From IMG/VR virus record IMGVR_UViG_2681813271_000002: a DNA stretch of 23,092 nt; one strand, 5' to 3'. Both the position numbers and the translations under genes were made by a program. The notes beneath the pieces are model-generated. The model made no database searches. It was not told the origin of the DNA and saw only the letters and a program-made list of their open reading frames with translations. Of the stretch, positions 985-23,092 are shown one piece after another. Every line of letters begins with the position of its first letter. Position 1 is the first letter of the stretch. This DNA is from a virus (lineage: Duplodnaviria; Heunggongvirae; Uroviricota; Caudoviricetes).

Positions 985-1200
985 ATCATTTTGCGGGTCC
1001 TTTCCGGCGATCCGACAGGTTACGGGGCGGAAGGCGCGCGGGTTTTCGCTATTTATGACAATTTTCCGGTTTAAGGCGTTTCCGTTCTTCTTCGCCGTAA
1101 CCTAATGTTTTTATTTAAAACACCCCCTGAAAAGAAAGGAAACGACAGGTGCTGAAAACGGGCTTTTTGGCCTCTGTCGTTTCCTTTCTCTGTTTTTGTC
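985..1200 (+). promoter_or_regulatory. cos: cos DNA-packaging site: cosQ, cosN and cosB with three Nu1-binding R elements
   Basis: Near-identity to the recalled lambda right-end/left-end junction (…gatgataattattatcattttgcgggtcctttccggcgatccgacaggttacg|gggcgg…cgcgggttttcgctatttatga…). R-element motif CGTTTCC(G/T)TTCT occurs at 1077-1090 (R3), inverted at 1134-1148 (R2) and direct at 1177-1190 (R1). R2 and R1 form a perfect 15-bp inverted repeat (gaaaggaaacgacag at 1134-1148, ctgtcgtttcctttc at 1174-1188). Sits immediately upstream of nu1. Confidence 0.85.
1025..1036 (+). promoter_or_regulatory. cosN: cosN cohesive-end segment (12 nt between the terminase nick sites); variant GGGCGGAAGGCG versus canonical lambda GGGCGGCGACCT
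   Basis: Flanks acg|…|cgcgggttttcgc are identical to lambda. The 12 nt between them differ at positions 7-12. Confidence 0.7.
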
Positions 1201-1213
1201 CGTGGAATGAACA

Positions 1214-1733
1214 ATGGAAGTCAACAAAAAGCAGCTGGCTGACATTTTCGGTGCGAGTATCCGTACCATTCAGAACTGGCAGGAACAGGGAATGCCCGTT
1301 CTGCGAGGCGGTGGCAAGGGTAATGAGGTGCTTTATGACTCTGCCGCCGTTATAAGATGGTATGCCGAAAGGGATGCTGAAATTGAGAACGAAAAGCTGC
1401 GCCGGGAAGTTGAAGAACTGCGGCAGGCCAGCGAGACAGATCTCCAGCCAGGGACTATTGAGTACGAACGCCATCGACTTACGCGTGCGCAGGCCGACGC
1501 ACAGGAGCTGAAAAATGCCAGAGACTCCGCTGAAGTGGTGGAAACCGCATTCTGTACTTTCGTGCTGTCGCGGATCGCAGGTGAAATTGCCAGTATTCTC
1601 GACGGGATCCCCCTGTCGGTGCAGCGGCGTTTTCCGGAACTGGAAAACCGACATGTTGATTTCCTGAAACGGGATATCATCAAAGCCATGAACAAAGCAG
1701 CCGCGCTGGATGAACTGATACCGGGGTTGCTGA

Positions 1734-1759
<26 letters not shown>
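1214..1759 (+). CDS. nu1: terminase small subunit Nu1 (cosB-binding)
   Basis: 181-aa ORF MEVNKKQLADIFGASIRTIQNWQEQGMPVLRGGGKGNEVLYD…, essentially lambda gpNu1. Located directly downstream of cosB; its 3' end overlaps A. Confidence 0.97.
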
Positions 1760-5440
<3,681 letters not shown>

Positions 5441-5460
<20 letters not shown>

Positions 5461-6760
5461 TCTCCCGCATATTGCCAGCATGGCTTTTAATGAGCCGCTG
5501 ATGCTTGAACCCGCCTATGCGCGGGTTTTCTTTTGTGCGCTTGCAGGCCAGCTTGGGATCAGCTGCCTGACGGATGCAGTATCCGGCGACAGCCTGACTG
5601 CCGGAGAGGCACCCGCGGCGCTGGCGTTATCCGGTGATGATGACGGACCACGACAGGCCCGCAGTTATCAGGTAATGAACGGCATCGCCGTGCTGCCGGT
5701 GTCCGGCACGCTGGTCAGCCGGACGCGGGCGCTGCAGCCGTACTCGGGGATGACCGGTTACAACGGCATTATCGCCCGTCTGCAACAGGCTGCCAGCGAC
5801 CCGATGGTGGACGGCATTCTGCTCGATATGGACACACCGGGCGGAATGGTGGCGGGAGCATTTGACTGCGCTGACATCATCGCCCGTGTGCGTGACATAA
5901 AGCCGGTATGGGCGCTGGCCAATGACATGAACTGCAGCGCAGGTCAGCTGCTTGCCAGTGCCGCCTCCCGGCGTCTGGTCACGCAGACCGCCCGGACAGG
6001 CTCCATCGGCGTCATGATGGCTCACAGTAATTACGGCGCTGCACTGGAGAAACAGGGCGTGGAAATCACGCTGATTTACAGCGGCAGCCATAAGGTGGAT
6101 GGCAACCCCTACAGCCATCTACCGGATGATGTCCGGGAAACATTGCAGTCCCGGATGGATGCAACCCGCCGGATGTTTGCACAGAAGGTGTCGGCATATA
6201 CCGGCCTGTCCGTGCAGGCTGTGCTGGATACCGAGGCTGCAGTGTACAGCGGTCAGGAGGCCATTGATGCCGGACTGGCTGATGAACTTGTTAACAGTAC
6301 CGATGCGATCACCGTCATGCGTGATGCACTGGATGCACGTAAATCCCGTCTCTCAGGAGGGCGAATGACCAAAGAGACTCAATCAACAACTGTTTCAGCC
6401 ACTGCTTCGCAGGCTGACGTTACTGGCGTGGTGCAAGCGACGGAGGGCGAGAACGCCAGCGCGGCGCAGCCGGACGTGAACGCGCAGATCACCGCAGCGG
6501 TTGCGGCAGAAAACAGTCGCATTATGGGGATCCTCAACTGTGAGGAGGCTCACGGACGCGAAGAACAGGCACGCGTGCTGGCCGAAACCCCCGGTATGAC
6601 CGTGGAAACGGCCCGCCGTATTCTGGCCGCAGCACCACAGAGTGCACAGACGCGCAGTGACACTGCGCTGGATCGTCTGATGCAGGGGGCACCGGCACCG
6701 CTGGCTGCAGGTAACCCGGCATCTGATGCCGTTAACGATTTGCTGAACACACCAGTGTAA
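5441..6760 (+). CDS. C: capsid assembly protease C (ClpP/SppA-like serine protease), GTG start
   Basis: The track ORF 5306-6760 contains the lambda gpC sequence starting at VTAELRNLPHIASMAFNEPLMLEPAYARVFF…. GTG at 5441 is preceded by gaggagaag (Shine-Dalgarno) and gives 439 aa, the gpC length. Overlaps the end of B. Confidence 0.93.
6365..6760 (+). CDS. nu3: scaffolding protein Nu3, nested in-frame in the 3' third of C
   Basis: In-frame ATG at 6365 preceded by ggaggg; encodes MTKETQSTTVSATASQADVTG… (131 aa), sharing the C stop. This is the known lambda C/Nu3 nested arrangement. Confidence 0.85.
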   Translation: MTKETQSTTVSATASQADVTGVVQATEGENASAAQPDVNAQITAAVAAENSRIMGILNCEEAHGREEQARVLAETPGMTVETARRILAAAPQSAQTRSDTALDRLMQGAPAPLAAGNPASDAVNDLLNTPV

Positions 6761-6769
6761 GGGATGTTT

Positions 6770-7102
6770 ATGACGAGCAAAGAAACCTTTACCCATTACC
6801 AGCCGCTGGGCAATAGTGACCCGGCTCATACCGCAACCGCGCCCGGCGGATTGAGTGCGAAAGCGCCTGCAATGACCCCGCTGATGCTGGACACCTCCAC
6901 CCGTAAGCTGGTTGCGTGGGATGGCACCACCGACGGTGCTGCCGTTGGCATTCTTGCGGTTGCTGCTGACCAGACCAGCACCACACTGACGTTCTACAAG
7001 TCCGGCACGTTCCGTTATGAGGATGTGCTCTGGCCGGAGGCTGCCAGCGACGAGACGAAAAAACGGACCGTGTTTGCCGGAACGGCAATCAGCATCGTTT
7101 AA
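6770..7102 (+). CDS. D: head decoration protein D
   Basis: [110 protein letters not shown], i.e. lambda gpD. The track ORF starts two codons upstream at 6764 (MFM…); 6770 is chosen to match lambda. Confidence 0.95.
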
Positions 7103-7122
7103 CTTTACCCTTCATCACTAAA

Positions 7123-7146
7123 GGCCGCCTGTGCGGCTTTTTTTAC
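7123..7146 (+). terminator. GC stem-loop followed by a T-run between D and E (terminator-like or mRNA-stabilising hairpin)
   Basis: ggccgc-ctgt-gcggc followed by ttttttt (7138-7144), seen directly. Whether it terminates in vivo is unknown; lambda late transcripts are Q-antiterminated. Confidence 0.4.
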
Positions 7147-7157
7147 GGGATTTTTTT

Positions 7158-8183
7158 ATGTCGATGTACACAACCGCCCAGCTGCTGGCGGCAAATGAGC
7201 AGAAATTTAAGTTTGATCCGCTGTTTCTGCGTCTCTTTTTCCGTGAGAGCTATCCCTTCACTACGGAGAAAGTCTATCTCTCACAAATTCCGGGACTGGT
7301 AAACATGGCGCTGTACGTTTCGCCGATTGTTTCCGGTGAGGTTATCCGTTCCCGTGGCGGCTCCACCTCTGAATTTACGCCGGGATATGTCAAACCCAAG
7401 CATGAGGTGAATCCGCAGATGACCCTGCGTCGCCTGCCGGATGAAGATCCGCAGAATCTGGCGGACCCGGCTTACCGCCGCCGTCGCATCATCATGCAGA
7501 ACATGCGTGACGAAGAGCTGGCCATTGCTCAGGTCGAAGAGATGCAGGCAGTTTCTGCCGTGCTCAAGGGCAAATACACCATGACCGGTGAAGCCTTCGA
7601 TCCGGTTGAGGTGGATATGGGCCGCAGTGCGGCGAACAACATCACACAGTCCGGCGTCACGGAGTGGAGCAAGCGTGACAAGTCCACGTATGACCCGACC
7701 GACGATATCGAAGCCTACGCGCTGAACGCCAGCGGTGTGGTGAATATCATCGTGTTTGACCCGAAAGGCTGGGCGCTGTTCCGTTCCTTCAAAGCCGTCA
7801 AGGAGAAGCTGGATACCCGTCGCGGCTCTCATTCCGAGCTGGAGACAGCGGTAAAAGACCTGGGCAAAGCGGTGTCCTATAAGGGAATGTATGGCGATGT
7901 GGCCATCGTCGTGTATTCCGGACAGTACGTGGAAAACGGCGTCAAAAAGAACTTCCTGCCGGACAACACGATGGTGCTGGGGAACACTCAGGCTCGCGGT
8001 CTGCGCACCTATGGCTGCATTCAGGATGCGGACGCACAGCGCGAAGGCATTAACGCCTCTGCCCGTTACCCGAAAAACTGGGTGACCACCGGCGATCCGG
8101 CGCGTGAGTTCACCATGATTCAGTCAGCACCGCTGATGCTGCTGGCTGATCCTGATGAGTTCGTGTCCGTTCAACTGGCGTAA
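7158..8183 (+). CDS. E: major capsid protein E (HK97 fold)
   Basis: MSMYTTAQLLAANEQKFKFDPLFLRLFFRESYPFTTEKVYLSQIPGLVNMALYVSPIVSGEVIRSRGG…FVSVQLA, 341 aa as in lambda gpE. The track ORF begins upstream at 7131; the lambda-type start is ATG 7158. Confidence 0.96.
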   Translation: MSMYTTAQLLAANEQKFKFDPLFLRLFFRESYPFTTEKVYLSQIPGLVNMALYVSPIVSGEVIRSRGGSTSEFTPGYVKPKHEVNPQMTLRRLPDEDPQNLADPAYRRRRIIMQNMRDEELAIAQVEEMQAVSAVLKGKYTMTGEAFDPVEVDMGRSAANNITQSGVTEWSKRDKSTYDPTDDIEAYALNASGVVNIIVFDPKGWALFRSFKAVKEKLDTRRGSHSELETAVKDLGKAVSYKGMYGDVAIVVYSGQYVENGVKKNFLPDNTMVLGNTQARGLRTYGCIQDADAQREGINASARYPKNWVTTGDPAREFTMIQSAPLMLLADPDEFVSVQLA

Positions 8184-8224
8184 TCATGGCCCTTCGGGGC
8201 CATTTTCTCTCTGTGGAGGAGTTC

Positions 8225-8623
8225 ATGACGAAAGATGAACTGATTGCCCGTCTTCAGGAGCTGGGTGAGCAATTGAACCGCGATGTCAGTTTGACGGGAA
8301 CGAAAGAAGAACTGGCGCTTCGTGTGGCAGAGCTGGAAGAAGAGCTTGATGACACGGATGAAACTGCCGGTCAGGACACCCCTCTCAGCCGGGAAAATGT
8401 GCTGACCGGGCATGAAAATGAGGTGGTATCAGCGCAGCCGGATACCGTGATTCAGGATACGGCTGAACTGGTCACGGTCGTGGCACTGGTGACGCTGCAT
8501 ACTGATGCACTTCACGCCACGCGGGATAAACCTGTGGCATTTGTGCTGCCGGGAACGGCGTTTCGTGTCTCTGCCGGTGTGGCAGCCGAAATGACAGAGC
8601 GCGGCCTGGCCAGAATGCAATAA
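8225..8623 (+). CDS. FI: DNA packaging/head assembly protein FI
   Basis: MTKDELIARLQELGEQLNRDVSLTGTKEELALRVAELEEELDDTDETAGQDTPLSRENVLTGHENEVVSAQPDTVIQDTAELVTVVALV…ERGLARMQ. ATG at 8225 is preceded by ggagga. Confidence 0.93.
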   Translation: MTKDELIARLQELGEQLNRDVSLTGTKEELALRVAELEEELDDTDETAGQDTPLSRENVLTGHENEVVSAQPDTVIQDTAELVTVVALVTLHTDALHATRDKPVAFVLPGTAFRVSAGVAAEMTERGLARMQ

Positions 8624-8634
8624 CGGGAGGCGCT

Positions 8635-8988
8635 GTGGCTGATTTCGATAACCTGTTCGATGCTGCCATTGCCCGCGCCGATGAAACGATACGCGGGTAC
8701 ATGGGAACGTCAGCCACCATGACATCCGGTGAGCAGTCAGGTGCGGTGATACGTGGTGTTTTTGATGACCCTGAAAATATCAGCTATGCCGGACAGGGCG
8801 TGCGCGTTGAAGGCTCCAGCCCGTCCCTGTTTGTCCGGACTGATGAGGTGCGGCAGCTGCGGCGTGGAGACACGCTGACCATCGGTGAGGAAAATTTCTG
8901 GGTAGATCGGGTTTCGCCGGATGATGGCGGAAGTTGTCATCTCTGGCTTGGACGGGGCGTACCGCCTGCCGTTAACCGTCGCCGCTGA
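8635..8988 (+). CDS. FII: head-tail connector protein FII
   Basis: 117-aa ORF MADFDNLFDAAIARADETIRGYMGTSATMTSGEQSGAVIRGVFDDPENISYAGQGVRVEGSSPSLFVRTDEVRQLRRGDTLTIGEENFWVDRVSPDDGGSCHLWLGRGVPPAVNRRR, matching lambda gpFII. Confidence 0.95.
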   Translation: MADFDNLFDAAIARADETIRGYMGTSATMTSGEQSGAVIRGVFDDPENISYAGQGVRVEGSSPSLFVRTDEVRQLRRGDTLTIGEENFWVDRVSPDDGGSCHLWLGRGVPPAVNRRR

Positions 8989-8999
8989 AAGGGGGATGT

Positions 9000-9633
9000 A
9001 TGGCCATAAAAGNNNNNNNNNNNNNNNNNNNNNNNNNNNNNNNNNNNNNNNNNNNNNNNNNNCAGCCGTATCAGCAAAACGGCGGTGCCCGGTGCCGCCG
9101 CAATGGCCATTAACCGCGTTGCTTCATCCGCGATATCGCAGTCTGCGTCACAGGTTGCCCGTGAGACAAAGGTACGCCGGANNNNNNNNNNNNNNNNNNN
9201 NNNNNNNNNNNNNNNNNNNNNNNNNNNNNNNNNNNNNNNNNNNNNNNNNNNNNNNNNNNNNNNNNNNNNNNNNNNAGTTAACCGGGGGGATTTGCCCGTA
9301 ATCAAGCTGGGTAATGCGCGGGTTGTCCTGTCCCGCCGCAGGCGTCATAAAAAGGGGCAGCGTTCATCCCTGAAAGGTGGCGGCAGCGTGCTTGTGGTGG
9401 GTAACCGTCGTATTCCCGGCGCGTTTATTCAGCAACTGAAAAACGGCCGGTGGCATGTTATGCAGCGTGTGGCCGGGAAAAACCGTTACCCCATTGATGT
9501 GGTGAAAATCCCGATGGCGGTGCCGCTGACCACGGCGTTTAAACAGAATATTGAACGGATACGGCGTGAACGTCTTCCGAAAGAGCTGGGCTATGCGCTG
9601 CAGCATCAACTGAGAATGGTAATAAAGCGATGA
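9000..9633 (+). CDS. Z: tail completion protein Z; coding sequence interrupted by two N-runs, reading frame not continuous across the first
   Basis: ATG at 9000 (MAIK…). After the first N-run the sequence encodes …SRISKTAVPGAAAMAINRVASSAISQSASQVARETKVRR; after the second, VNRGDLPVIKLGNARVVLSRRRR…[11 protein letters not shown] and a stop at 9631-9633, which overlaps the U start (ATGA). All visible segments match lambda gpZ. The span is 55 nt longer than lambda Z (579 nt) and the frame shifts from 0 to 1 across the first gap. Confidence 0.85.
9013..9062. other. N-run (50 nt) inside Z
   Basis: Run of n; replaces about 25 nt of lambda-equivalent coding sequence. Confidence 1.
9182..9275. other. 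N-run (94 nt) inside Z
   Basis: Run of n; replaces about 65 nt of lambda-equivalent coding sequence. Confidence 1.
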
Positions 9634-11627: not shown

Positions 11628-14181
11628 ACCGGTAGGCGATCTGGTCGTTGATTTGAGTCTGGATGCGGCCAGATTTGACGAGCAGATGGCCAGAGTCAGG
11701 CGTCATTTTTCCGGTACGGAAAGTGATGCGAAAAAAACAGCGGCAGTCGTTGAACAGTCGCTGAGCCGACAGGCGCTGGCTGCACAGAAAGCGGGGATTT
11801 CCGTCGGGCAGTATAAAGCCGCCATGCGTATGCTGCCTGCACAGTTCAACGACGTGGCCACGCAGCTTGCAGGGGGGCAGAATCCCTGGCTGATCCTGCT
11901 GCAACAGGGTGGTCAGGTTAAGGACTCCTTCGGCGGGATGATCCCCATGTTCAGGGGGCTTGCCGGCGCGATCACCCTGCCGATGGTGGGGGCCACCTCG
12001 CTGGCGGTGGCGACCGGTGCGCTGGCGTATGCCTGGTATCAGGGCAACTCAACCCTGTCCGATTTCAACAAAACGCTGGTCCTTTCCGGTAATCAGGCGG
12101 GACTGACGGCAGATCGTATGCTGGTCCTGTCCAGAGCCGGGCAGGCGGCAGGGCTGACGTTTAACCAGACCAGCGAGTCACTCAGCGCACTGGTTAAGGC
12201 GGGGGTAAGCGGTGAGGCTCAGATTGCGTCCATCAGCCAGAGTGTGGCGCGTTTCTCCTCTGCATCCGGCGTGGAGGTGGACAAGGTCGCTGAAGCCTTC
12301 GGGAAGCTGACCACAGACCCGACGTCGGGGCTGACGGCGATGGCACGCCAGTTCCATAACGTGACGGCGGAGCAGATTGCGTATGTTGCTCAGTTGCAGC
12401 GTTCCGGCGATGAAGCCGGGGCATTGCAGGCGGCGAACGAGGCCGCAACGAAAGGGTTTGATGACCAGACCCGCCGCCTGAAAGAGAACATGGGCACGCT
12501 GGAGACCTGGGCAGACAGGACTGCACGTGCATTCAAATCCATGTGGGATGCGGTGCTGGATATTGGTCGTCCTGATACCGCGCAGGAGATGCTGATTAAG
12601 GCAGAGGCTGCGTTTAAGAAAGCAGACGACATCTGGAATCTGCGCAAGGATGATTATTTCGTTAACGATGAAGCACGGGCGCGTTACTGGGATGATCGTG
12701 AAAAAAAACGCCTGGAGCGGGATGCAGCCCAAAAGAGGGTAGATCAACAGCGTCAACAGGACAAAAATGCGCAGCAGCAGAGCGATACCGAAGCGTCACG
12801 GCTGAAATATACCGAAGAGGCGCAGAAGGCTTACGAACGGCTGCAGACGCCGCTGGAGAAATATACCGCCCGTCAGGAAGAACTGAACAAGGCACTGAAA
12901 GACGGAAAAATCCTGCAGGCAGATTACAACACGCTGATGGCGGCGGCGAAAAAGGATTATGAAGCGACGCTGAAAAAGCCGAAACAGTCCGGCGTGAAGG
13001 TGTATGCGGGCGATCGTCAGGAAGACAGTGCTCATGCGGCCCTGCTGACGCTTCAGGCAGAACTCCGGACGCTGGAGAAGCATGCCGGAGCGAATGAGAA
13101 AATCAGCCAGCAGCGCCGGGATTTGTGGAAGGCAGAAAGTCAGTTCGCGGTACTGGAGGAGGCGGCACAACGTCGCCAGCTGTCCGCACAGGAGAAATCC
13201 CTGCTGGCGCATAAAGACGAGACGCTGGAGTACAAACGCCAGCTGGCTGCACTTGGTGACAAGGTTACGTATCAGGAGCACCTGAATGCGCTGGCGCAGC
13301 AGGCGGATAAATTCGCACAGCAGCAACGGGCAAAACGGGCAGCCATTGATGCGAAAAACCGGGGGCTGACTGACCGGCAGGCAGCGCGGGAAGCCACGGA
13401 ACAGCGCCTGAAGGAACAGTATGGCGATAATCCTCTGGCGCTGAATAACGTCATGTCAGAGCAGAAAAAGACCTGGGCGGCTGAAGACCAGCTTCGCGGG
13501 AGCTGGATGGCAGGCCTGAAGTCCGGCTGGAGTGAGTGGGAAGAGAGCGCCACGGACAGTATGTCACAGGTTAAAAGTGCAGCCACGCAGACCTTTGATG
13601 GTATTGCACAGAATATGGCGGCGATGCTGACCGGCAGTGAACAGAACTGGCGCAGCTTCACCCGCTCCGTGCTGTCCATGATGACAGAAATTCTGCTTAA
13701 GCAGGCAATGGTGGGGATTGTCGGGAGTATCGGCAGCGCCATTGGCGGGGCTGTTGGTGGCGGCGCATCCGCGTCAGGTGGTACAGCCATTCAGGCCGCT
13801 GCGGCGAAATTCCATTTTGCAACCGGGGGATTTACGGGAACCGGCGGCAAATATGAGCCAGCGGGGATTGTTCACCGTGGTGAATTTGTCTTCACGAAGG
13901 AGGCAACCAGCCGGATTGGCGTGGGGAATCTCTACCGGCTGATGCGCGGCTATGCGGAAGGTGGTTATGTGGGCGGTGCCGGAAGTCCGGCGCAGATGCG
14001 GCGGGCTGAAGGCATTAATTTTAATCAGAACAATCACGTGGTGATTCAGAACGACGGTACGAATGGTCTGCCAGGTCCACAGATGATGAAGGCCGTGTAT
14101 GACATGGCCCGCAAGGGGGCACAGGATGAACTCCGGCTGCAGTTGCGTGATGGCGGTATGTTATCAGGGAGCGGTGGATGA
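11620..14181 (+). CDS. H: tail tape measure protein H
   Basis: 853-aa ORF (the lambda gpH length) with a long helical/charged central region and a Gly-rich C-terminal segment. Position between GT and M; start overlaps the end of T. Confidence 0.95.
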   Translation: MAEPVGDLVVDLSLDAARFDEQMARVRRHFSGTESDAKKTAAVVEQSLSRQALAAQKAGISVGQYKAAMRMLPAQFNDVATQLAGGQNPWLILLQQGGQVKDSFGGMIPMFRGLAGAITLPMVGATSLAVATGALAYAWYQGNSTLSDFNKTLVLSGNQAGLTADRMLVLSRAGQAAGLTFNQTSESLSALVKAGVSGEAQIASISQSVARFSSASGVEVDKVAEAFGKLTTDPTSGLTAMARQFHNVTAEQIAYVAQLQRSGDEAGALQAANEAATKGFDDQTRRLKENMGTLETWADRTARAFKSMWDAVLDIGRPDTAQEMLIKAEAAFKKADDIWNLRKDDYFVNDEARARYWDDREKKRLERDAAQKRVDQQRQQDKNAQQQSDTEASRLKYTEEAQKAYERLQTPLEKYTARQEELNKALKDGKILQADYNTLMAAAKKDYEATLKKPKQSGVKVYAGDRQEDSAHAALLTLQAELRTLEKHAGANEKISQQRRDLWKAESQFAVLEEAAQRRQLSAQEKSLLAHKDETLEYKRQLAALGDKVTYQEHLNALAQQADKFAQQQRAKRAAIDAKNRGLTDRQAAREATEQRLKEQYGDNPLALNNVMSEQKKTWAAEDQLRGSWMAGLKSGWSEWEESATDSMSQVKSAATQTFDGIAQNMAAMLTGSEQNWRSFTRSVLSMMTEILLKQAMVGIVGSIGSAIGGAVGGGASASGGTAIQAAAAKFHFATGGFTGTGGKYEPAGIVHRGEFVFTKEATSRIGVGNLYRLMRGYAEGGYVGGAGSPAQMRRAEGINFNQNNHVVIQNDGTNGLPGPQMMKAVYDMARKGAQDELRLQLRDGGMLSGSGG

Positions 14182-14507
14182 AAACCTTTCGCTGGAAAGT
14201 GAAGCCGGATATGGAGGTGAACTCGCAGCCATCGGTGCGTGAAGTGCGTTTTGGTGACGGGTACTCACAGCGTATGGCGGCAGGGCTGAATGCTGACCTG
14301 AAAACATACAGGGTGACGCTTTCCGTGACCCGGGAGGAGGCCCGGCATCTGGAAGCGTTCCTGGCAGAGCACGGTGGCTGGAAGGCATTTTTGTGGAAGC
14401 CACCCTATGCATACCGGCAGATAAAGGTGACCTGTGCCGGGTGGTCTGCGCGGGTCGGGATGTTGCGCGTTGAGTTCAGCGCGGAGTTTAAGCAGGTGGT
14501 GAACTGA
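14178..14507 (+). CDS. M: tail tip protein M, copy 1 (diverged)
   Basis: 109-aa ORF MKTFRWKVKPDMEVNSQPSVREVRFGDGYSQRMAAGLNADLKTYRVTLSV…. ATGA overlap with the H stop. About 82% identical to the visible part of copy 2. Confidence 0.9.
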   Translation: MKTFRWKVKPDMEVNSQPSVREVRFGDGYSQRMAAGLNADLKTYRVTLSVTREEARHLEAFLAEHGGWKAFLWKPPYAYRQIKVTCAGWSARVGMLRVEFSAEFKQVVN

Positions 14508-15205
14508 TGCAGGATATTCGCGAAGAAAGTCTGAACGAGTCGGTTAAGTCAGAGCAGTCACCGCGGGTGGTACTCTGGGAAATCGACCTGACGGTACAGG
14601 GTGGTGAGCGGTATTTTTTCTGTAATGAGCTGAATGAAAAAGGGGAGCCGGTCACCTGGCAGGGGCGTAAGTATGAGGCATACCCGATTGACGGCAGCGG
14701 CTTTGAGATGAACGGCCGGGGCAGCAGTGCCAGACCGTCGCTGACGGTGTCCAATCTGTTCGGTCTGGTCACCGGGATGGCGGAAGACCTGCAGAGTCTG
14801 GTGGGGGCCACGGTGGTCCGCCGCCGGGTGTATGCCCGTTTTCTGGATGCGGTGAATTTCGTTGCGGGCAATCCGGAGGCGGACCCGGAGCAGGAGCTGA
14901 GTGACCGCTGGGTGGTGGAGCAGATGTCGCAGCTGACAGCCATGACGGCCTCGTTTGTGCTGGCTACACCGACCGAGACGGACGGGGCGCTGTTTCCCGG
15001 TCGCATCATGCTGGCGAACACCTGTATGTGGGATTACCGGGGAGATGAATGCGGGTATAACGGTCCTGCGGTGGCGGATGAGTTCGACAACCCCACCACG
15101 GATATCCGTAAGGACAGATGCAGCAAGTGCATGCGCGGGTGTGAACTGCGCAGGAATGTCGGCAATTTTGGCGGTTTCCTTTCCATTAATAAACTTTCGC
15201 AGTAA
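14507..15205 (+). CDS. L: tail tip assembly protein L, copy 1 (diverged; C-terminal Cys cluster conserved)
   Basis: 232-aa ORF; TGATG overlap with M. Cysteines in …NTCMW…DECGY…RCSKCMRGCE… are conserved with copy 2. About 77% identical to copy 2 by hand count. Confidence 0.9.
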   Translation: MQDIREESLNESVKSEQSPRVVLWEIDLTVQGGERYFFCNELNEKGEPVTWQGRKYEAYPIDGSGFEMNGRGSSARPSLTVSNLFGLVTGMAEDLQSLVGATVVRRRVYARFLDAVNFVAGNPEADPEQELSDRWVVEQMSQLTAMTASFVLATPTETDGALFPGRIMLANTCMWDYRGDECGYNGPAVADEFDNPTTDIRKDRCSKCMRGCELRRNVGNFGGFLSINKLSQ

Positions 15206-15215
15206 ATCCCGGTTT

Positions 15216-15959
15216 ATGACACAGACTGAATCAGCGATTCTGGCACATGCCCGGCGGTGTGCGCCTGCGGAGTCGTGCGGCTTCGTGATAAGCACGCCGG
15301 AGGGGGAGCGGTATATCCCTTGTGTGAATATTTCCGCAGAGCCGGAGGCGTATTTTCGTATCGCACCGGAAGACTGGCTGCGGGCAGAGATGCAGGGGGA
15401 GATTGTGGCACTGGTCCACAGTCATCCCGGTGGGCTGCCCTGGCTGAGCGAGGCTGACCGGCGGTTGCAGATAAAAAGCGCACTGCCCTGGTGGTTGGTC
15501 TGCCGGGGTGACATTCACAAATTCCGCTGTGTGCCACATCTGACAGGACGGCGCTTTGAGCACGGGGTGACGGACTGTTACACGCTGTTCCGGGATGCTT
15601 ATCATCTGGCGGGGACTGAAATGCCGGATTTTCATCGCGAGGATGACTGGTGGCGCAACGGTCAGAACCTTTACCTGGACAATATGGCGGTCACCGGCTT
15701 TTACCGGGTGCCCCTGTCCTCTGCACAGGCGGGCGATATTCTGCTGTGCTGCTTTGGTGCTTCGGTACCGAACCATGCCGCCATTTACTGCGGCAACGGT
15801 GAGCTGCTTCACCATCTGCCTGAACAACTGAGTAAACGGGAGAGGTATTCCGAAAAATGGCAACGACGAACGCATTCAGTCTGGCGTCACCGCCACTGGC
15901 ACGCATCTGCCTTCACGGGGATTTACAACGATTTGGCCGCCGCCTCAGCCTGTATGTGA
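15216..15959 (+). CDS. K: tail tip assembly protein K, copy 1 (JAMM/MPN domain plus NlpC/P60 domain)
   Basis: The track ORF 14955-15959 starts inside L; the K-homologous sequence begins at ATG 15216 (MTQTESAILAHARRCAPAESCGF…), giving 247 aa. Contains HSHPGGLPWLSEAD (HxH-x7-S-x2-D JAMM motif) and a downstream Cys/His pair typical of NlpC/P60. About 88% identical to copy 2. Confidence 0.88.
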   Translation: MTQTESAILAHARRCAPAESCGFVISTPEGERYIPCVNISAEPEAYFRIAPEDWLRAEMQGEIVALVHSHPGGLPWLSEADRRLQIKSALPWWLVCRGDIHKFRCVPHLTGRRFEHGVTDCYTLFRDAYHLAGTEMPDFHREDDWWRNGQNLYLDNMAVTGFYRVPLSSAQAGDILLCCFGASVPNHAAIYCGNGELLHHLPEQLSKRERYSEKWQRRTHSVWRHRHWHASAFTGIYNDLAAASACM

Positions 15960-16416
15960 ACACGGCAGCGGAAGCCATTCGCGCCCTGTCGATGCAGATG
16001 CCGGGCTTTCGCCGTCAGATGAACGAAGGCTGGTACCAGATACGTATTGCCGGTTATGACACGGCACCGGAGGCGGTGTACGCCCGTCTTCACGAACAGC
16101 TGGGTGAGGGAACGGTCATCCACATTGTGCCGCGACTGGCCGGGGCCGGAAAGGGTGGACTGCAGATTGTGCTGGGGGCGGCAGCCATCGTGGGCTCTTT
16201 CTTCACTGCCGGGGCATCAATGGCGTTATGGGGTTCAGCCCTGGCAGCCGGTGGTTTTTCTGCCACCACGATGCTGTTTTCACTTGGAGCCAGCATGATT
16301 CTGGGCGGTGTGGCCCAGATGCTGGCCCCGAAGGCAAAAACACCGGATTACCGCGCAACGGATAACGGCAGACAGAACACGTACTTTTCCTCACTGGATA
16401 ACATGATTGCCCAGGG
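15857..16416 (+). CDS. I: tail tip assembly protein I, copy 1 (diverged); 3' end lost in N-run
   Basis: Starts at 15857 in a different frame overlapping the K 3' end by 103 nt, exactly as in copy 2. Encodes MATTNAFSLASPPLARICLHGDLQRFGRR…FSLGASMILGGVAQMLAPKAKTP… (first 187 aa visible). About 68% identical to copy 2. Confidence 0.85.
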
Positions 16417-17050
16417 NNNNNNNNNNNNNNNNNNNNNNNNNNNNNNNNNNNNNNNNNNNNNNNNNNNNNNNNNNNNNNNNNNNNNNNNNNNNNNNNNNNN
16501 NNNNNNNNNNNNNNNNNNNNNNNNNNNNNNNNNNNNNNNNNNNNNNNNNNNNNNNNNNNNNNNNNNNNNNNNNNNNNNNNNNNNNNNNNNNNNNNNNNNN
16601 NNNNNNNNNNNNNNNNNNNNNNNNNNNNNNNNNNNNNNNNNNNNNNNNNNNNNNNNNNNNNNNNNNNNNNNNNNNNNNNNNNNNNNNNNNNNNNNNNNNN
16701 NNNNNNNNNNNNNNNNNNNNNNNNNNNNNNNNNNNNNNNNNNNNNNNNNNNNNNNNNNNNNNNNNNNNNNNNNNNNNNNNNNNNNNNNNNNNNNNNNNNN
16801 NNNNNNNNNNNNNNNNNNNNNNNNNNNNNNNNNNNNNNNNNNNNNNNNNNNNNNNNNNNNNNNNNNNNNNNNNNNNNNNNNNNNNNNNNNNNNNNNNNNN
16901 NNNNNNNNNNNNNNNNNNNNNNNNNNNNNNNNNNNNNNNNNNNNNNNNNNNNNNNNNNNNNNNNNNNNNNNNNNNNNNNNNNNNNNNNNNNNNNNNNNNN
17001 NNNNNNNNNNNNNNNNNNNNNNNNNNNNNNNNNNNNNNNNNNNNNNNNNN
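16417..17050. other. N-run (634 nt) at the junction between the two M-L-K-I copies
   Basis: Run of n. Must contain the last ~36 codons of I copy 1 and the first ~20 codons of M copy 2; if the length is real, more than 400 nt of content is unknown. Confidence 1.
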
Positions 17051-17322
17051 TAAGAAAGGTGCGCTTTGGTGATGGCTATTCCCAGCGAGCGCCTGCCGGG
17101 CTGAATGCCAACCTGAAAACGTACAGCGTGACGCTTTCTGTCCCCCGTGAGGAGGCCATGGTACTGGAGTCGTTTCTGGAAGAGCACGGGGGCTGGAAAG
17201 CCTTTCTGTGGACGCCGCCTTATGAGTGGCGGCAGATAAAGGTGACCTGCGCAAAATGGTCGTCGCGGGTCAGTATGCTGCGTGTTGAGTTCAGCGCAGA
17301 GTTTGAACAGGTGGTGAACTGA
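17051..17322 (+). CDS. M: tail tip protein M, copy 2 (lambda-type); 5' end lost in N-run
   Basis: In-frame from the gap edge: (R)KVRFGDGYSQRAPAGLNANLKTYSVTLSVPREEAMVLESFLEEHGGWKAFLWTPPYEWRQIKVTCAKWSSRVSMLRVEFSAEFEQVVN, i.e. the C-terminal ~89 residues of an M homologue. Truncated by the gap, not a pseudogene call. Confidence 0.85.
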
Positions 17323-18020
17323 TGCAGGATATCCGGCAGGAAACACTGAATGAATGCACCCGTGCGGAGCAGTCGGCCAGCGTGGTGCTCTGGGAAATCG
17401 ATCTGACAGAGGTCGGTGGAGAACGTTATTTTTTCTGTAATGAGCAGAACGAAAAAGGTGAGCCGGTCACCTGGCAGGGGCGACAGTATCAGCCGTATCC
17501 CATTCAGGGGAGTGGTTTTGAACTGAATGGCAAAGGCACCAGTACGCGCCCCACGCTGATGGTTTCTAACCTGTACGGTATGGTCACCGGGATGGCGGAA
17601 GATCTACAGAGTCTGGTCGGCGGAACGGTGGTCCGGCGTAAGGTTTACGCCCGTTTTCTGGATGCGGTGAACTTCGTCAACGGAAACAGTGACGCCGATC
17701 CGGAGCAGGAGGTGATCAGCCGCTGGCGCATTGAGCAGTGCAGCGAACTGAGCGCGGTGAGTGCCTCTTTTGTACTGTCCACGCCGACGGAAACAGATGG
17801 CGCTGTTTTTCCGGGACGTATCATGCTGGCCAACACCTGCACCTGGACCTATCGCGGCGATGAGTGCGGTTATCACGGTCCGGCGGTCGCGGATGAATAT
17901 GACCAGCCAACGTCCGACATCACGAAGGATAAATGCAGCAAATGCCTGAGTGGCTGTAAGTTTCGCAATAACGTCGGCAACTTTGGCGGCTTCCTTTCCA
18001 TTAACAAACTTTCGCAGTAA
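17322..18020 (+). CDS. L: tail tip assembly protein L, copy 2
   Basis: 232-aa ORF MQDIRQETLNECTRAEQSASVVLWEIDLTEVGGERYFFCNEQNEKGEPVTWQGRQYQPYPIQGSGFELNGKG…; TGATG overlap with M copy 2; same Cys cluster as copy 1. Confidence 0.93.
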   Translation: MQDIRQETLNECTRAEQSASVVLWEIDLTEVGGERYFFCNEQNEKGEPVTWQGRQYQPYPIQGSGFELNGKGTSTRPTLMVSNLYGMVTGMAEDLQSLVGGTVVRRKVYARFLDAVNFVNGNSDADPEQEVISRWRIEQCSELSAVSASFVLSTPTETDGAVFPGRIMLANTCTWTYRGDECGYHGPAVADEYDQPTSDITKDKCSKCLSGCKFRNNVGNFGGFLSINKLSQ

Positions 18021-18025
18021 ATCCC

Positions 18026-18769
18026 ATGACAGAGACAGAATCAGCGATTCTGGCGCACGCCCGGCGATGTGCTCCAGCGGAGTCGTGCGGCTTCGTGGTA
18101 AGAACGCCGGAGGGGGAAAGATATTTCCCCTGCGTGAATATCTCCGGTGAGCCGGAGGCGTATTTCCGTATGTCGCCGGAAGACTGGCTGCAGGCAGAGA
18201 TGCAGGGTGAGATTGTGGCACTGGTCCACAGCCACCCCGGTGGTCTGCCCTGGCTGAGTGAGGCCGACCGGCGGCTGCAGGTGCAGAGTGATTTGCCGTG
18301 GTGGCTGGTCTGCCGGGGGGCGATTCACAAGTTCCGCTGTGTGCCACATCTTACCGGGCGGCGCTTTGAGCACGGGGTGACGGACTGTTACACGCTGTTC
18401 CGGGATGCTTACCATCTGGCGGGGATTGAGATGCCGGATTTTCATCGTGAGGATGACTGGTGGCGTCACGGTCAGAATCTCTATCTGGATAATCTGGAGG
18501 CCACAGGGCTGTATCAGGTGCCGTTGTCAGCGGCGCAGCCGGGCGATGTGCTGCTGTGCTGTTTTGGTTCATCGGTGCCGAATCATGCCGCCATTTACTG
18601 TGGTGACGGCGAGCTGCTGCACCATATTCCTGAACAACTGAGCAAACGAGAGAGGTATACCGACAAATGGCAGCGACGCACACACTCCCTCTGGCGTCAC
18701 CGGGCATGGCACGCATCTGCCTTTACGGGGATTTGCAACGATTTGGCCGCCGCATCGACCTTCGTGTGA
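18026..18769 (+). CDS. K: tail tip assembly protein K, copy 2 (JAMM/MPN plus NlpC/P60)
   Basis: 247-aa ORF MTETESAILAHARRCAPAESCGFVVRTPEGERYFPCVNISGEPEAYFRMSPEDW…HSHPGGLPWLSEAD…. The internal Met49 corresponds to the classically annotated 199-aa lambda K start. Confidence 0.92.
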   Translation: MTETESAILAHARRCAPAESCGFVVRTPEGERYFPCVNISGEPEAYFRMSPEDWLQAEMQGEIVALVHSHPGGLPWLSEADRRLQVQSDLPWWLVCRGAIHKFRCVPHLTGRRFEHGVTDCYTLFRDAYHLAGIEMPDFHREDDWWRHGQNLYLDNLEATGLYQVPLSAAQPGDVLLCCFGSSVPNHAAIYCGDGELLHHIPEQLSKRERYTDKWQRRTHSLWRHRAWHASAFTGICNDLAAASTFV

Positions 18770-19338
18770 AAACGGGTGCCGAAGCCATCCGGGCGATGGC
18801 CACACAGCTCCCTGCGTTTCGTCAGAAGCTGAGCGACGGCTGGTATCAGGTGCGTATTGCCGGGCAGGATGTTAGCACGTCCGGATTAACGGCGCAGTTA
18901 CATGAGGCTCTGCCTGACGGCGCTGTGATTCATATTGTTCCCAGAGTCGCCGGGGCCAAGTCAGGTGGTGTATTCCAGATTGTCCTGGGAGCAGCCGCCA
19001 TTGCCGGATCATTCTTTACCGCCGGAGCCACCCTTGCAGCATGGGGGGCTGCCATTGGTGCCGGTGGTATGACCGGCATTCTGTTTTCTCTCGGTGCCAG
19101 TATGGTGCTCGGCGGTGTGGCTCAGATGCTGGCACCGAAAGCCAGAACTCCCCGCACACAGACAACGGATAACGGTAAGCAGAACATCTATTTCTCCTCA
19201 CTGGATAACATGGTTGCCCAGGGCAATGTTATGCCTGTTCTGTATGGTGAAATGCGCGTGGGGTCACGTGTGGTATCTCAGGAGATCAGCACGGCAGACG
19301 AAGGGGACGGTGGTCAGGTTGTGGTGATTGGTCGCTGA
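18667..19338 (+). CDS. I: tail tip assembly protein I, copy 2
   Basis: 223-aa ORF MAATHTLPLASPGMARICLYGDLQRFGRRIDLRVKTGAEAIRAMATQLPAFRQKLSDGWYQVRIAG…GQVVVIGR, matching lambda gpI. Overlaps the K 3' end in another frame. Confidence 0.93.
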   Translation: MAATHTLPLASPGMARICLYGDLQRFGRRIDLRVKTGAEAIRAMATQLPAFRQKLSDGWYQVRIAGQDVSTSGLTAQLHEALPDGAVIHIVPRVAGAKSGGVFQIVLGAAAIAGSFFTAGATLAAWGAAIGAGGMTGILFSLGASMVLGGVAQMLAPKARTPRTQTTDNGKQNIYFSSLDNMVAQGNVMPVLYGEMRVGSRVVSQEISTADEGDGGQVVVIGR

Positions 19339-19398
19339 TGCAAAATGTTTTATGTGAAATCGCCTCCGGGCGGTTTTATCGTTTATGGAGCATGACGA

Positions 19399-22300
19399 AT
19401 GGGTAAAGGCAGCAGTAAGGGGCATACCCCGCGCGAAGCGAAGGACAACCTGAAGTCCACGCAGCTGCTGAGTGTGATCGATGCCATCAGCGAAGGGCCG
19501 GTTGAAGGTCCGGTGGATGGATTAAAAAGCGTGCTGCTGAACAGTACGCCGGTGCTGGACAGTGAGGGGAATACCAACATCTCCGGCGTCACGGTGGTGT
19601 TCCGGGCAGGTGAGCAGGAGCAGTCACCGCCGGAGGGATTTGAATCCTCCGGCTCCGAGACGGTGCTGGGTACGGAAGTGAAATATGACACGCCGATCAC
19701 CCGGACCATCACGTCGGCAAACATTGACCGACTGCGTTTTACCTTCGGTGTACAGGCACTGGTGGAAACCACCTCAAAGGGAGACAGGAATCCGTCTGAA
19801 GTTCGCCTGCTGGTTCAGATACAGCGTAACGGTGGCTGGGTGACGGAAAAAGACATCACCATTAAGGGCAAAACCACCTCGCAGTATCTGGCCTCGGTGG
19901 TGGTGGATAACCTGCCGCCGCGCCCGTTTAATATCCGGATGCGCAGAATGACGCCGGACAGCACCACAGACCAGCTGCAGAACAAAACGCTCTGGTCGTC
20001 ATACACCGAAATCATCGATGTGAAACAGTGCTACCCGAACACGGCACTGGTCGGCGTACAGGTGGATTCGGAGCAGTTCGGCAGCCAGCAGGTGAGCCGT
20101 AATTATCATCTTCGCGGGCGCATTCTGCAGGTGCCGTCGAACTATAATCCGCAGACGCGGCAATACAGCGGTATCTGGGACGGAACGTTAAAACCGGCAT
20201 ACAGCAACAACATGGCCTGGTGTCTGTGGGATATGCTGACCCATCCGCGCTATGGCATGGGGAAACGTCTTGGTGCGGCAGATGTGGATAAATGGGCGCT
20301 GTATGTCATCGGCCAGTACTGTGACCAGTCGGTGCCGGACGGCTTTGGCAGCACGGAGCCGCGCATCACCTGTAATGCCTGGCTGACCACACAGCGCAAG
20401 GCGTGGGATGTGCTCAGTGATTTCTGCTCGGCGATGCGCTGTATGCCGGTATGGAACGGGCAGACGCTGACGTTCGTGCAGGACCGACAGTCGGATAAGG
20501 TGTGGGCCTATAACCGCAGTAATGTGGTGATGCCGGATGATGGCGCGCCGTTCCGCTACAGTTTCAGCGCCCTGAAAGACCGCCATAATGCCGTTGAGGT
20601 GAACTGGATTGACCCGGATAACGGCTGGGAGACGGCGACAGAGCTTGTGGAGGATACGCAGGCCATTGTCCGTTACGGTCGTAACGTCACGAAGATGGAT
20701 GCCTTTGGCTGTACCAGCCGGGGGCAGGCACACCGCGCCGGGCTGTGGCTGATTAAAACGGAACTGCTGGAGACGCAGACCGTGGATTTCAGCGTGGGTG
20801 CTGAAGGGCTTCGTCATGTACCGGGCGATGTCATTGAAATCTGCGATGATGACTATGCCGGTATCCGCACCGGCGGGCGCGTGCTGGCGGTGAACAGCCA
20901 GACCCGGACGCTGACGCTCGACCGTGAAATCACGCTGCCATCCTCCGGCACCACGCTGATAAGCCTGGTTGACGGGCAGGGGAATCCGGTCAGCGTGGAG
21001 GTCCAGTCCGTCACCGACGGCGTGAAGGTAAAAGTGAGCCGTGTTCCTGACGGTGTTGCTGAATACAGCGTGTGGGGGCTGAAGCTGCCGACGCTGCACC
21101 AGCGATTGTTCCGCTGCGTGAGTATCCGTGAGAACGACGACGGCACGTATGCCATCACCGCCGTGCAGCATGTGCCGGAAAAAGAAGCCATCGTGGATAA
21201 CGGGGCGCACTTTGACGGCGACCAGAGCGGCACGGTGAATGGTGTCACGCCGCCAGCGGTGCAGCACCTGACTGCCGAAGTCACCGCAGACAGCGGGGAA
21301 TATCAGGTGCTGGCGCGCTGGGACACGCCGAAGGTGGTGAAGGGCGTGAGCTTCCTGCTCCGTCTGACCGTAACAGCGGATGACGGCAGTGAGCGGCTGG
21401 TCAGCACGGCCCGGACGACGGAAACCACTTACCGCTTCACACAACTGGCGCTGGGGAACTACAGGCTGACAGTCCGGGCAGTAAATGCGTGGGGGCAGCA
21501 GGGCGATCCGGCGTCGGTATCGTTCCGGATTGCCGCACCGGCAGCGCTGTCGCGGATTGAGCTGACGCCGGGCTATTTTCAGATAACCGCCACGCCGCAT
21601 CTTGCGGTTTATGATCCGACGGTACAGTTTGAGTTCTGGTTCTCGGAAAAGCGGATTGCGGATATCAGGCAGGTTGAAACCACAGCACGCTATCTTGGCA
21701 CGGCGCTGTACTGGATAGCCGCCAGTATCAATATCAAACCGGGCCATGATTATTACTTTTATATCCGCAGTGTGAACACCGTTGGCAAATCGGCATTCGT
21801 GGAGGCTGTTGGTCAGCCGAGTGATGATGCATCCGGTTATCTGGATTTTTTCAAAGGCGAGATAGGGAAAACCCATCTGGCTCAGGAGCTGTGGACGCAG
21901 ATTGATAACGGTCAGCTTGCGCCTGACCTGGCTGAAATCAGGACGTCCATTACGGATGTCAGCAATGAAATCACGCAGACCGTCAATAAGAAACTGGAAG
22001 ACCAGAGTGCGGCAATTCAGCAGATACAGAAGGTTCAGGTTGATACAAATAATAATCTGAACAGCATGTGGGCTGTGAAGCTGCAACAGATGAAGGACGG
22101 ACGCCTTTATATTGCGGGTATCGGTGCCGGTATTGAGAATACGCCAGCAGGAATGCAGAGTCAGGTGCTGCTGGCGGCAGACAGGATTGCGATGATTAAT
22201 CCTGCGAATGGCAACACAAAGCCGATGTTTGTTGGTCAGGGCGATCAGATATTCATGAACGACGTGTTCCTGAAACGCCTGACGGCTCCCACCATTACCA

Positions 22301-22779
22301 GCGGCGGTAATCCTCCGGCATTTTCCCTGACACCGGACGGAAAACTGACCGCTAAAAATGCAGATATCAGTGGCAGTGTGAATGCGAACGCCGGGACGCT
22401 CAACAATGTCACAATTAATGAGAACTGTCAGATTAAGGGGAAACTGTCAGCCAACCAGATTGAAGGCGATATAGTCAAAACAGTGGGTAAGGCTTTTCCG
22501 CGGGACTCCCGGGCACCGGAGCGGTGGCCATCAGGGACCATTACCGTCAGGATTTATGACGATCAGCCTTTTGACAGGCAAATTGTTATTCCGGCGGTGG
22601 CATTCAGCGGCGCTAAACATGAGCGGGAGAATAACGATATTTATTCGTCATGCCGCCTGATAGTACGGAAAAACGGTGCTGAAATTTATAACCGTACCGC
22701 GCTGGATAATACGCTGATTTACAGTGGTGTTATTGATATGCCAGCTGGTCGCGGCCACATGACGCTGGAGTTTTCGGTG
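19399..22779 (+). CDS. J: tail tip central fibre / host-specificity protein J; 3' end lost in N-run; C-terminal region diverged from lambda
   Basis: ATG at 19399 preceded by ggag. Translation [105 protein letters not shown]… is open for 1127 codons to the gap. It is absent from the ORF track only because no stop is reached before the N-run. Lambda-like over about the first 900 aa; the last ~200 visible residues differ from recalled lambda J. Confidence 0.93.
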
Positions 22780-23048
22780 NNNNNNNNNNNNNNNNNNNNN
22801 NNNNNNNNNNNNNNNNNNNNNNNNNNNNNNNNNNNNNNNNNNNNNNNNNNNNNNNNNNNNNNNNNNNNNNNNNNNNNNNNNNNNNNNNNNNNNNNNNNNN
22901 NNNNNNNNNNNNNNNNNNNNNNNNNNNNNNNNNNNNNNNNNNNNNNNNNNNNNNNNNNNNNNNNNNNNNNNNNNNNNNNNNNNNNNNNNNNNNNNNNNNN
23001 NNNNNNNNNNNNNNNNNNNNNNNNNNNNNNNNNNNNNNNNNNNNNNNN
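22780..23048. other. N-run (269 nt) spanning the J 3' end, the J-lom intergenic region and the lom 5' end
   Basis: Run of n. Confidence 1.
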
Positions 23049-23092
23049 GCCGTATCCGGTGCGCCTGCATGGGCGTCTGAACATCAGTCCAC
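23049..23092 (+). CDS. lom: outer-membrane protein Lom (OmpX/Ail family), internal N-terminal fragment only
   Basis: Frame beginning at 23049 reads AVSGAPAWASEHQS, which matches the recalled lambda Lom signal-peptide/cleavage region (…ICLAVSGAPAWA|SEHQSTLSAGY…). Position immediately downstream of J is as in lambda. Only 14 codons are visible. Confidence 0.5.

Follow-up and report, generated by a model that had tools for sequence, protein, structure and literature searches.

Gene J and its Place in the Tail Operon

Virus record IMGVR_UViG_2681813271_000002 (Caudoviricetes), whose whole stretch of 23,092 nt is called the window here, ends in a tail operon that contains gene J, the gene of the tail tip attachment protein that forms the central tail fibre. 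J starts at 19399 with the N-terminus of its phage lambda homolog and stays open in frame 1 of the + strand for 1127 codons, up to a run of N at 22780 (Table 1). It is preceded by gene I (18667–19338) and followed by a fragment of the outer-membrane protein gene lom, the adjacency of J and lom spanning a scaffold gap. The Pfam families Phage-tail_3, FNIII-A_GpJ, Ig_J, Ig_J_second, Phage_Tail_Tip, and Ig_GpJ_C are all detected in J above cut-off and in the expected order, and residues 1–1126 align over their full length with residues 1–1098 of the solved lambda J structure 8iyk (2163 bits, E = 0). By its domain set, end-to-end alignment, and operon position, J is a member of the lambda-family tip attachment proteins, and both peptides quoted from it in an initial annotation of this DNA are present in the frame given above. 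As set out below, J is a natural mosaic, and its receptor-binding domain (RBD) most likely uses OmpC rather than LamB, the receptor of lambda.

Table 1. Coordinates of gene J, its parts, and the adjoining features in the window.
Feature	Position	Strand	Basis or remarks
Gene J, readable part (tail tip attachment protein / central tail fibre)	19399..22779	+	Translation, structure alignment, Pfam; last 32 codons and stop lie in the gap
Lambda-like J body (hub domains and two FNIII/Ig domains)	19399..21815	+	~96% nt identity to lambda in 90-nt windows; 783/808 aa
Alpha-helical shaft stretch with 28 residues not in lambda J	21904..21996	+	Pairwise alignments
Central straight fibre (beta-prism), to the equivalent of lambda G964	22066..22374	+	Amino acid identity to lambda (see text); 90% nt block 22218–22428
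RBD, visible part, equivalent to lambda 965–1098	22375..22779	+	VT1-Sakai/1A2 class by alignment
Block 100% DNA-identical to E. coli 118UI J	22094..22779 (686 nt)	+	Last mismatch at 22093
Specificity loop 1 (lambda 1006–1017, with residue 1012)	22498..22533	+	Lambda length, 7/12 residues changed; identical to 1A2 and VT1-Sakai
Specificity loop 2 (lambda 1041–1054)	22603..22644	+	Sole loop differing from 1A2
Specificity loop 3 (lambda 1069–1083)	22687..22731	+	Identical to 1A2 and VT1-Sakai; most positions differ from lambda
Scaffold gap, 269 N	22780..23048	.	Exact N-run; homologous distance 211 nt
lom fragment (Ail/Lom outer-membrane protein), end of signal peptide and mature N-terminus, AVSGAPAWASEHQS	23049..23092 (44 nt)	+	Translation, matches

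Comparison with Lambda J and Mosaic Structure

The window protein agrees with lambda J (P03749; PDB 8iyk, 8xcj/8xck) in gene position, domain order, and the fold family of the RBD, but the degree of identity differs strongly between the domains, as delimited in the lambda structure (with the shaft at residues 809–861; PMC11101478). The hub and FNIII domains (lambda 1–808) are 96.9% identical and free of indels, whereas the alpha-helical shaft shares only 43.4% of its residues and is 28 residues longer in the window. Both the beta-prism (lambda 862–964; 77.7%) and the visible part of the RBD (lambda 965–1098; 51.5%) again align without indels, and the tail of the RBD (lambda 1099–1132), whose window side was imputed from relatives across the gap, is 30% identical and one residue shorter near position 1107. 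The 28 additional shaft residues correspond to four heptads; we infer that they are helical and would add a few nanometres to the fibre. The visible RBD, which covers positions 1–102 of the 135 positions of Pfam Ig_GpJ_C, begins directly behind the equivalent of lambda G964, the fusion point of published chimeras (PMC11338833). The initial annotation, which had described the N-terminal ~900 residues as lambda-like, was thus right about the lambda-like body but overestimated its extent, which is ~810–835 residues. The divergence from lambda that it reported for the C-terminus is real and localised: the last 178 residues are ~50% identical and all four hypervariable loops are replaced, loop 4 being imputed.

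At the DNA level, J remains ~96% identical to lambda up to ~21815, and nucleotide similarity ends at window position 21895, which corresponds to lambda 18002. E. ruysiae, E. albertii, and Shigella J genes lose their similarity to lambda at the same lambda position, which in this respect makes lambda the exception. The window J is 100% identical to phage vB_EcoS-640R1 over 21661–22055, and from 21636 onward it is 95–99% identical to its counterpart in the E. coli 118UI prophage (WP_016235292.1), with scattered mismatches that give way to complete identity for the remainder of the readable gene (Table 1). This identical block is a recently exchanged RBD cassette. 118UI and at least 17 other complete genomes share these last 686 nt, the lom fragment, and the order J, terminator, lom with the window, and over 22300–22779 the identity is 100% in at least 18 complete genomes, but the N-terminal ~2.2 kb of the 118UI gene is only ~75% identical to the window, and J as a whole matches no complete E. 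coli genome at more than 97.7%. The same overall mosaic is found in vB_EcoS-640R1 J (URC10086.1), which has 1159 residues, is 96.2% identical at the nucleotide level without gaps, and is followed by lom and stf; it differs in its RBD (94.9% identity), where it reads GHGH in place of GRGH and, at the end, ITIS in place of ISIS. J thus looks like an intact gene and is a natural mosaic, in which the lambda-like first ~810 residues, with the hub and FNIII domains by which the tail tube is closed, are joined to the distal fibre form of most E. coli prophages.

The Receptor-Binding Domain and its Specificity Loops

The specificity region of J (lambda 960–1132) is hypervariable in natural homologs, with four hot spots around residues 1012, 1048, 1077, and 1107 (PMC6646904). 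RBD classes were defined here by aligning the last ~178 residues, the imputed tail of the window protein included. Over this stretch the window is identical to 118UI (100%) and very similar to vB_EcoS-640R1 (94.9%), to the C-terminus of gpJ 1A2 (93.1%; Brodel et al., Nature 2024; PMC11338833), and to VT1-Sakai (92.7%; 165/178), while it shares 70% with phage 21 and with gpJ A8 and 50.6% with lambda. Three classes emerge, one represented by lambda, one by phage 21 and A8, and one by VT1-Sakai, 1A2, vB_EcoS-640R1, and 118UI (92.7–100% to the window), and on this alignment the window RBD falls into the last of these. The alignment to J proteins with known receptors that the initial annotation had proposed as a check accordingly places the C-terminus far outside lambda-type variation and with the VT1-Sakai class.

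gpJ 1A2, a published lambda chimera, carries the VT1-Sakai J C-terminus. Its sequence was taken from the recoded DNA in the supplementary material of Brodel et al. (2024; PMC11338833); the protein reconstructed from it agrees with the C-terminal part of natural VT1-Sakai J at 172 of 173 positions, which validates the reconstruction. The window RBD with its imputed tail is identical to 1A2 at 161 of 173 positions over the swapped region and requires no gap columns. The two differ by 12 substitutions and in their context, 1A2 having the shaft and prism of lambda and the window its native long shaft.

In this class the loops keep the lengths found in lambda and differ in sequence. Loop 1, around the host-range residue 1012 of lambda (PMC6646904), changes from RQRESSVDW in lambda to RDSRAPERW in the window, with charge reversals. 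Loop 4, as imputed from the relatives of the gap, is identical to 1A2, as are loops 1 and 3 (Table 1). Loop 2 reads HERENND in the window and HEKEHTD in 1A2, so that R/N/N replace K/H/T at the positions equivalent to lambda 1048, 1050, and 1051. The signature of the A8/phage 21 class, a deletion of four residues in loop 1 and an insertion of five in loop 2, is absent from the window, whose loops are of lambda length. A lambda-type LamB-binding sequence was likewise not found in the region equivalent to lambda 960–1132, given the low identity of both the visible part and the imputed tail and the replaced loops.

gpJ A8 (PDB 9wca, and 9wcb in complex with OmpC) and phage 21 J resemble the window protein in being natural non-LamB RBDs on a lambda-type J, and one stretch of 28 residues is identical. 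The C-terminus of phage 21 J is itself 78.9% identical to A8 (9wca) with the same loop indels, which suggests that phage 21 may use OmpC as well. VT1-Sakai J is annotated as truncated by mutation, and the Sakai prophage that carries the 1A2-type domain may be adsorption-defective.

Likely Receptor

The proposal of the initial annotation that this phage uses a receptor other than LamB gains support from the homology of its J to 1A2, which depends on OmpC. The chimeras, 1A2 among them, were screened in a K-12 recipient from which lamB had been deleted and in which ompC was deleted and supplied from a plasmid (PMC11338833). In this setting 1A2 delivers DNA efficiently with the EDL933 allele of OmpC (98% delivery on OmpC-EDL933 in the source data, 8a data) and not with the K-12 allele, whereas A8 accepts both (PMC11338833). 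According to a follow-up preprint, 1A2 recognises OmpC and not LamB. A8 has been solved in complex with OmpC (PDB 9wcb). By homology, OmpC rather than LamB is most likely the receptor of the window J. We are fairly confident of the overall explanation, that is, a mosaic lambda-family J with an RBD that would dock onto OmpC, followed by an ordinary gap of 211 nt.

Several points weigh against this explanation. The 12 differences from 1A2 among 173 residues include three in loop 2 (1048, 1050, and 1051), which is known as a hot spot, and single ones at 997 and 1090, and since 1A2 discriminates between OmpC alleles, small changes matter (PMC11338833). The last 32 residues, including loop 4, were imputed and not read, and the assignment of this exact allele to OmpC would follow from homology. 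The 1A2 protein was rebuilt by three-frame alignment from machine-read PDF DNA with frameshifting errors, which leaves five positions ambiguous. The functional data for 1A2 were obtained with chimeric transducing particles that carry a P2 side fibre, and not with a native phage (PMC11338833). Finally, in the source data of Extended Data Fig. 2 of the same study (PMC11338833; supplement file 10), the values for 1A2 and A8 in panel C (OmpC-EDL933) duplicate those in panel B (OmpC-MG1655), which looks like a copy error.

The alternative that survives best, although it is unlikely, is that the loop-2 variant directs the RBD to another outer-membrane protein, such as OmpF, or to a range of OmpC alleles unlike that of 1A2. 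The substitutions at lambda 1048, 1050, and 1051 together with those at 997 and 1090 are in or near host-range hot spots (PMC6646904), and 1A2 and A8 demonstrate specificity at the level of alleles. However, three of the four loops are identical to 1A2 (the fourth loop as imputed) without any indel, and the receptor switch of lambda required changes at both 1012 and 1107 (PMC6646904), where the window equals 1A2, position 1107 again being imputed. A related and equally tentative idea is that the HERENND sub-allele may tune the RBD to a set of OmpC alleles other than that of 1A2. A set of E. coli isolates, most of them human or avian, carries HERENND with 100% conservation, whereas HEKEHTD is the form of the O157 prophage VT1-Sakai and of 1A2. 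If this were true, RBD sub-alleles of the VT1-Sakai/1A2 class would track the OmpC polymorphism of their hosts.

Rather improbable, too, is an origin of the J frame as an assembly chimera, in which the assembler would have collapsed a lambda-like body and a 118UI-type RBD from two co-resident prophages. The neighbouring tail genes give this idea some substance: the window contains genes M-L-K-I in tandem (14178–19338) as two differing copies, one on each side of a gap of 634 N (16417–17050) that connects gene I (lambda 15329) back to gene M (lambda 13158). The 118UI prophage matches the first copy at 99.5–100%, and the last 686 nt of J just as closely; lambda matches the second copy at 95.8%. 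Most likely this duplication arose when two co-resident lambdoid prophages with shared repeats were misjoined in scaffolding. That J as a whole lacks a closer match in complete genomes would also fit a chimera. Within 17051–22779, however, there is no N, the identity to 118UI climbs gradually and does not switch abruptly from unrelated sequence, vB_EcoS-640R1 has the same architecture in an ungapped sequence, and mosaicism at a fine scale is usual for J.

That the C-terminus lies within normal lambda J variation and still binds LamB is very unlikely, for although the RBD and its loops have lambda lengths up to residue 1098, the fold family (Pfam Ig_GpJ_C) is the same, and both receptors are trimeric porins, barely half of the last 178 residues are identical, loop 1 shows charge reversals, loops 2–4 are replaced, and the 1A2 domain, which is 93% identical, functions in cells deleted for lamB in dependence on the OmpC allele supplied (PMC11338833).

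A review of phages of Shiga toxin-producing E. coli names only BamA, FadL, and LamB as receptors, for other phages; a receptor-prediction preprint of 2026 covers GpJ of the Drexlerviridae type and not the VT1-Sakai/1A2 class; and a paper on SNIPE, in which the ECOR-derived PhiR phages were used, names no outer-membrane receptor for them. Phage phi330 uses OmpC, and its RBD is only 35–40% identical to the lambda and 434 RBDs.

With OmpC as the favoured receptor, adsorption would proceed as described for the lambda J structures (PMC11101478), from which the steps of signal transmission are taken. The J trimer would close the tail tip and extend the central fibre, and the bottom loops of its three immunoglobulin-like RBDs would enter a trimeric porin, most likely OmpC, from the extracellular face. 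Binding would spread the bases of the RBDs, so that the prism compacts and twists; the helical shaft would then flip, the FNIII strings would be released, and the hub would open for the exit of DNA.

The J–lom Gap

As the initial annotation had stated, the true C-terminus of J is lost in a run of N, and lom resumes after it: the run occupies exactly 22780–23048, and the next 44 nt are lom. This fragment matches codons ~16–30 of vB_EcoS-640R1 lom with three mismatches (0 such matches expected by chance) and also matches 118UI lom. When the gap was spanned by a single query, at least 18 complete E. coli genomes, 118UI, VR50, and BEN2908 among them, were 100% identical at both flanks, and in all best-matching genomes these flanks are 210–211 nt apart and not 269, which gives a span of 735 nt versus 793 in the window. 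The corresponding 118UI sequence (locus L002, 6481–6691) consists of the last 32 codons of J and its stop, a spacer of 67 nt, and the start of lom (MRKVCAAILSAAICL). The spacer contains a GGCGCC...GGCGCC hairpin followed by a run of T and is thus terminator-like.

The J–lom junction is a scaffolding gap of a draft assembly. To judge from the relatives with identical flanks, it most likely conceals an ordinary 211 nt, which would hold 32 codons of J including loop 4, the stop, the spacer with its terminator, and the first ~15 codons of lom. J imputed in this way, and not read, has 1159 residues, the same length as in vB_EcoS-640R1. It is a weaker possibility that the excess of 58 N over 211 nt conceals a real insertion between J and lom.

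Assembly State and Remaining Features of the Window

Five runs of N of irregular length (181–232, 9013–9062, 9182–9275, 16417–17050, and 22780–23048) interrupt the window, which is a draft scaffold. From ~1037 onward it is colinear with the left arm of lambda from cos to J. At the two small gaps of the head-tail joining region, colinear lambda DNA measures 25 and 64 nt where the window has 50 and 94 N. Because the N-runs are longer than the homologous distance in three cases (50 vs 25, 94 vs 64, and 269 vs 211), their lengths are estimates, and a reading of them as masks of exact length is ruled out. The head genes (1037–9012) are 97.9% identical to lambda, whereas the tail genes Z to I of the first contig (9276–16416) reach only ~90%, and a further mosaic boundary lies close to the pair of small gaps within gene Z. 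Upstream of cos, 233–1040 shares 99.7% of its sequence with the ECOR-derived temperate phage PhiR49_1 and ~98.5% with phage ev099, in which the matching genes are annotated as hypothetical, YbcV, and YlcI/YnfO-family genes. The 118UI prophage has an IS3-family element between L and K, which the window lacks at this place.

Several open reading frames (ORFs) of the window were discarded. The 398-residue ORF at 15857–17053 (+) does not represent an insertion but gene I (Pfam Lambda_tail_I, residues 15–97), whose frame runs on into the 634-N run, which is translated as X. The antisense ORFs 16348–17346 (-) and 16391–17254 (-) are artefacts that consist mostly of X from the same run, those at 22648–23070 and 22719–23084 arise from translating the N-run behind J, and the antisense ORF 20188–22086 lies wholly within J and is without support. 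The Rfam scan of the window detected no RNA family. For users of this assembly, the gapped and misjoined state of the tail region means that gene order and gene ends cannot be trusted without long reads.

Distribution and Significance

Of 5426 complete E. coli genomes, 3682 contain matches that cover at least 80% of window positions 21000–22779; this type of J is present in the majority of sequenced E. coli. An exact search of genome contigs with 180 nt returned no hit. A protein-seeded scan of contigs returned few true relatives, in E. ruysiae (98%), E. albertii (93%), and Shigella (42–67%). Most of its other matches are lambda DNA in unrelated assemblies (L008–L018, L020, L023, and L027), which include Neobacillus, Leeuwenhoekiella, a Chromatiales metagenome-assembled genome, Pseudomonas, Shewanella, Oceanobacillus, Desulfosporosinus, Kitasatospora, Pseudoxanthomonas, and others; these matches are 99.6–100% identical, several of the contigs are ~48.4–48.5 kb long, and they are lambda contamination.

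The J type of the window is a very common allele that is not peculiar to this phage. It is also already known, since its RBD DNA is identical to that of annotated gpJ genes in many complete genomes, its class has a published function, and the diversity of this region is well documented; beyond annotation the significance of the finding is small. Lambda J is the unusual form, and a J of 1159 residues with a tip of the VT1-Sakai type is the common form in E. coli. Because this type is so common, LamB should not be assumed to be the receptor of prophages that encode it.

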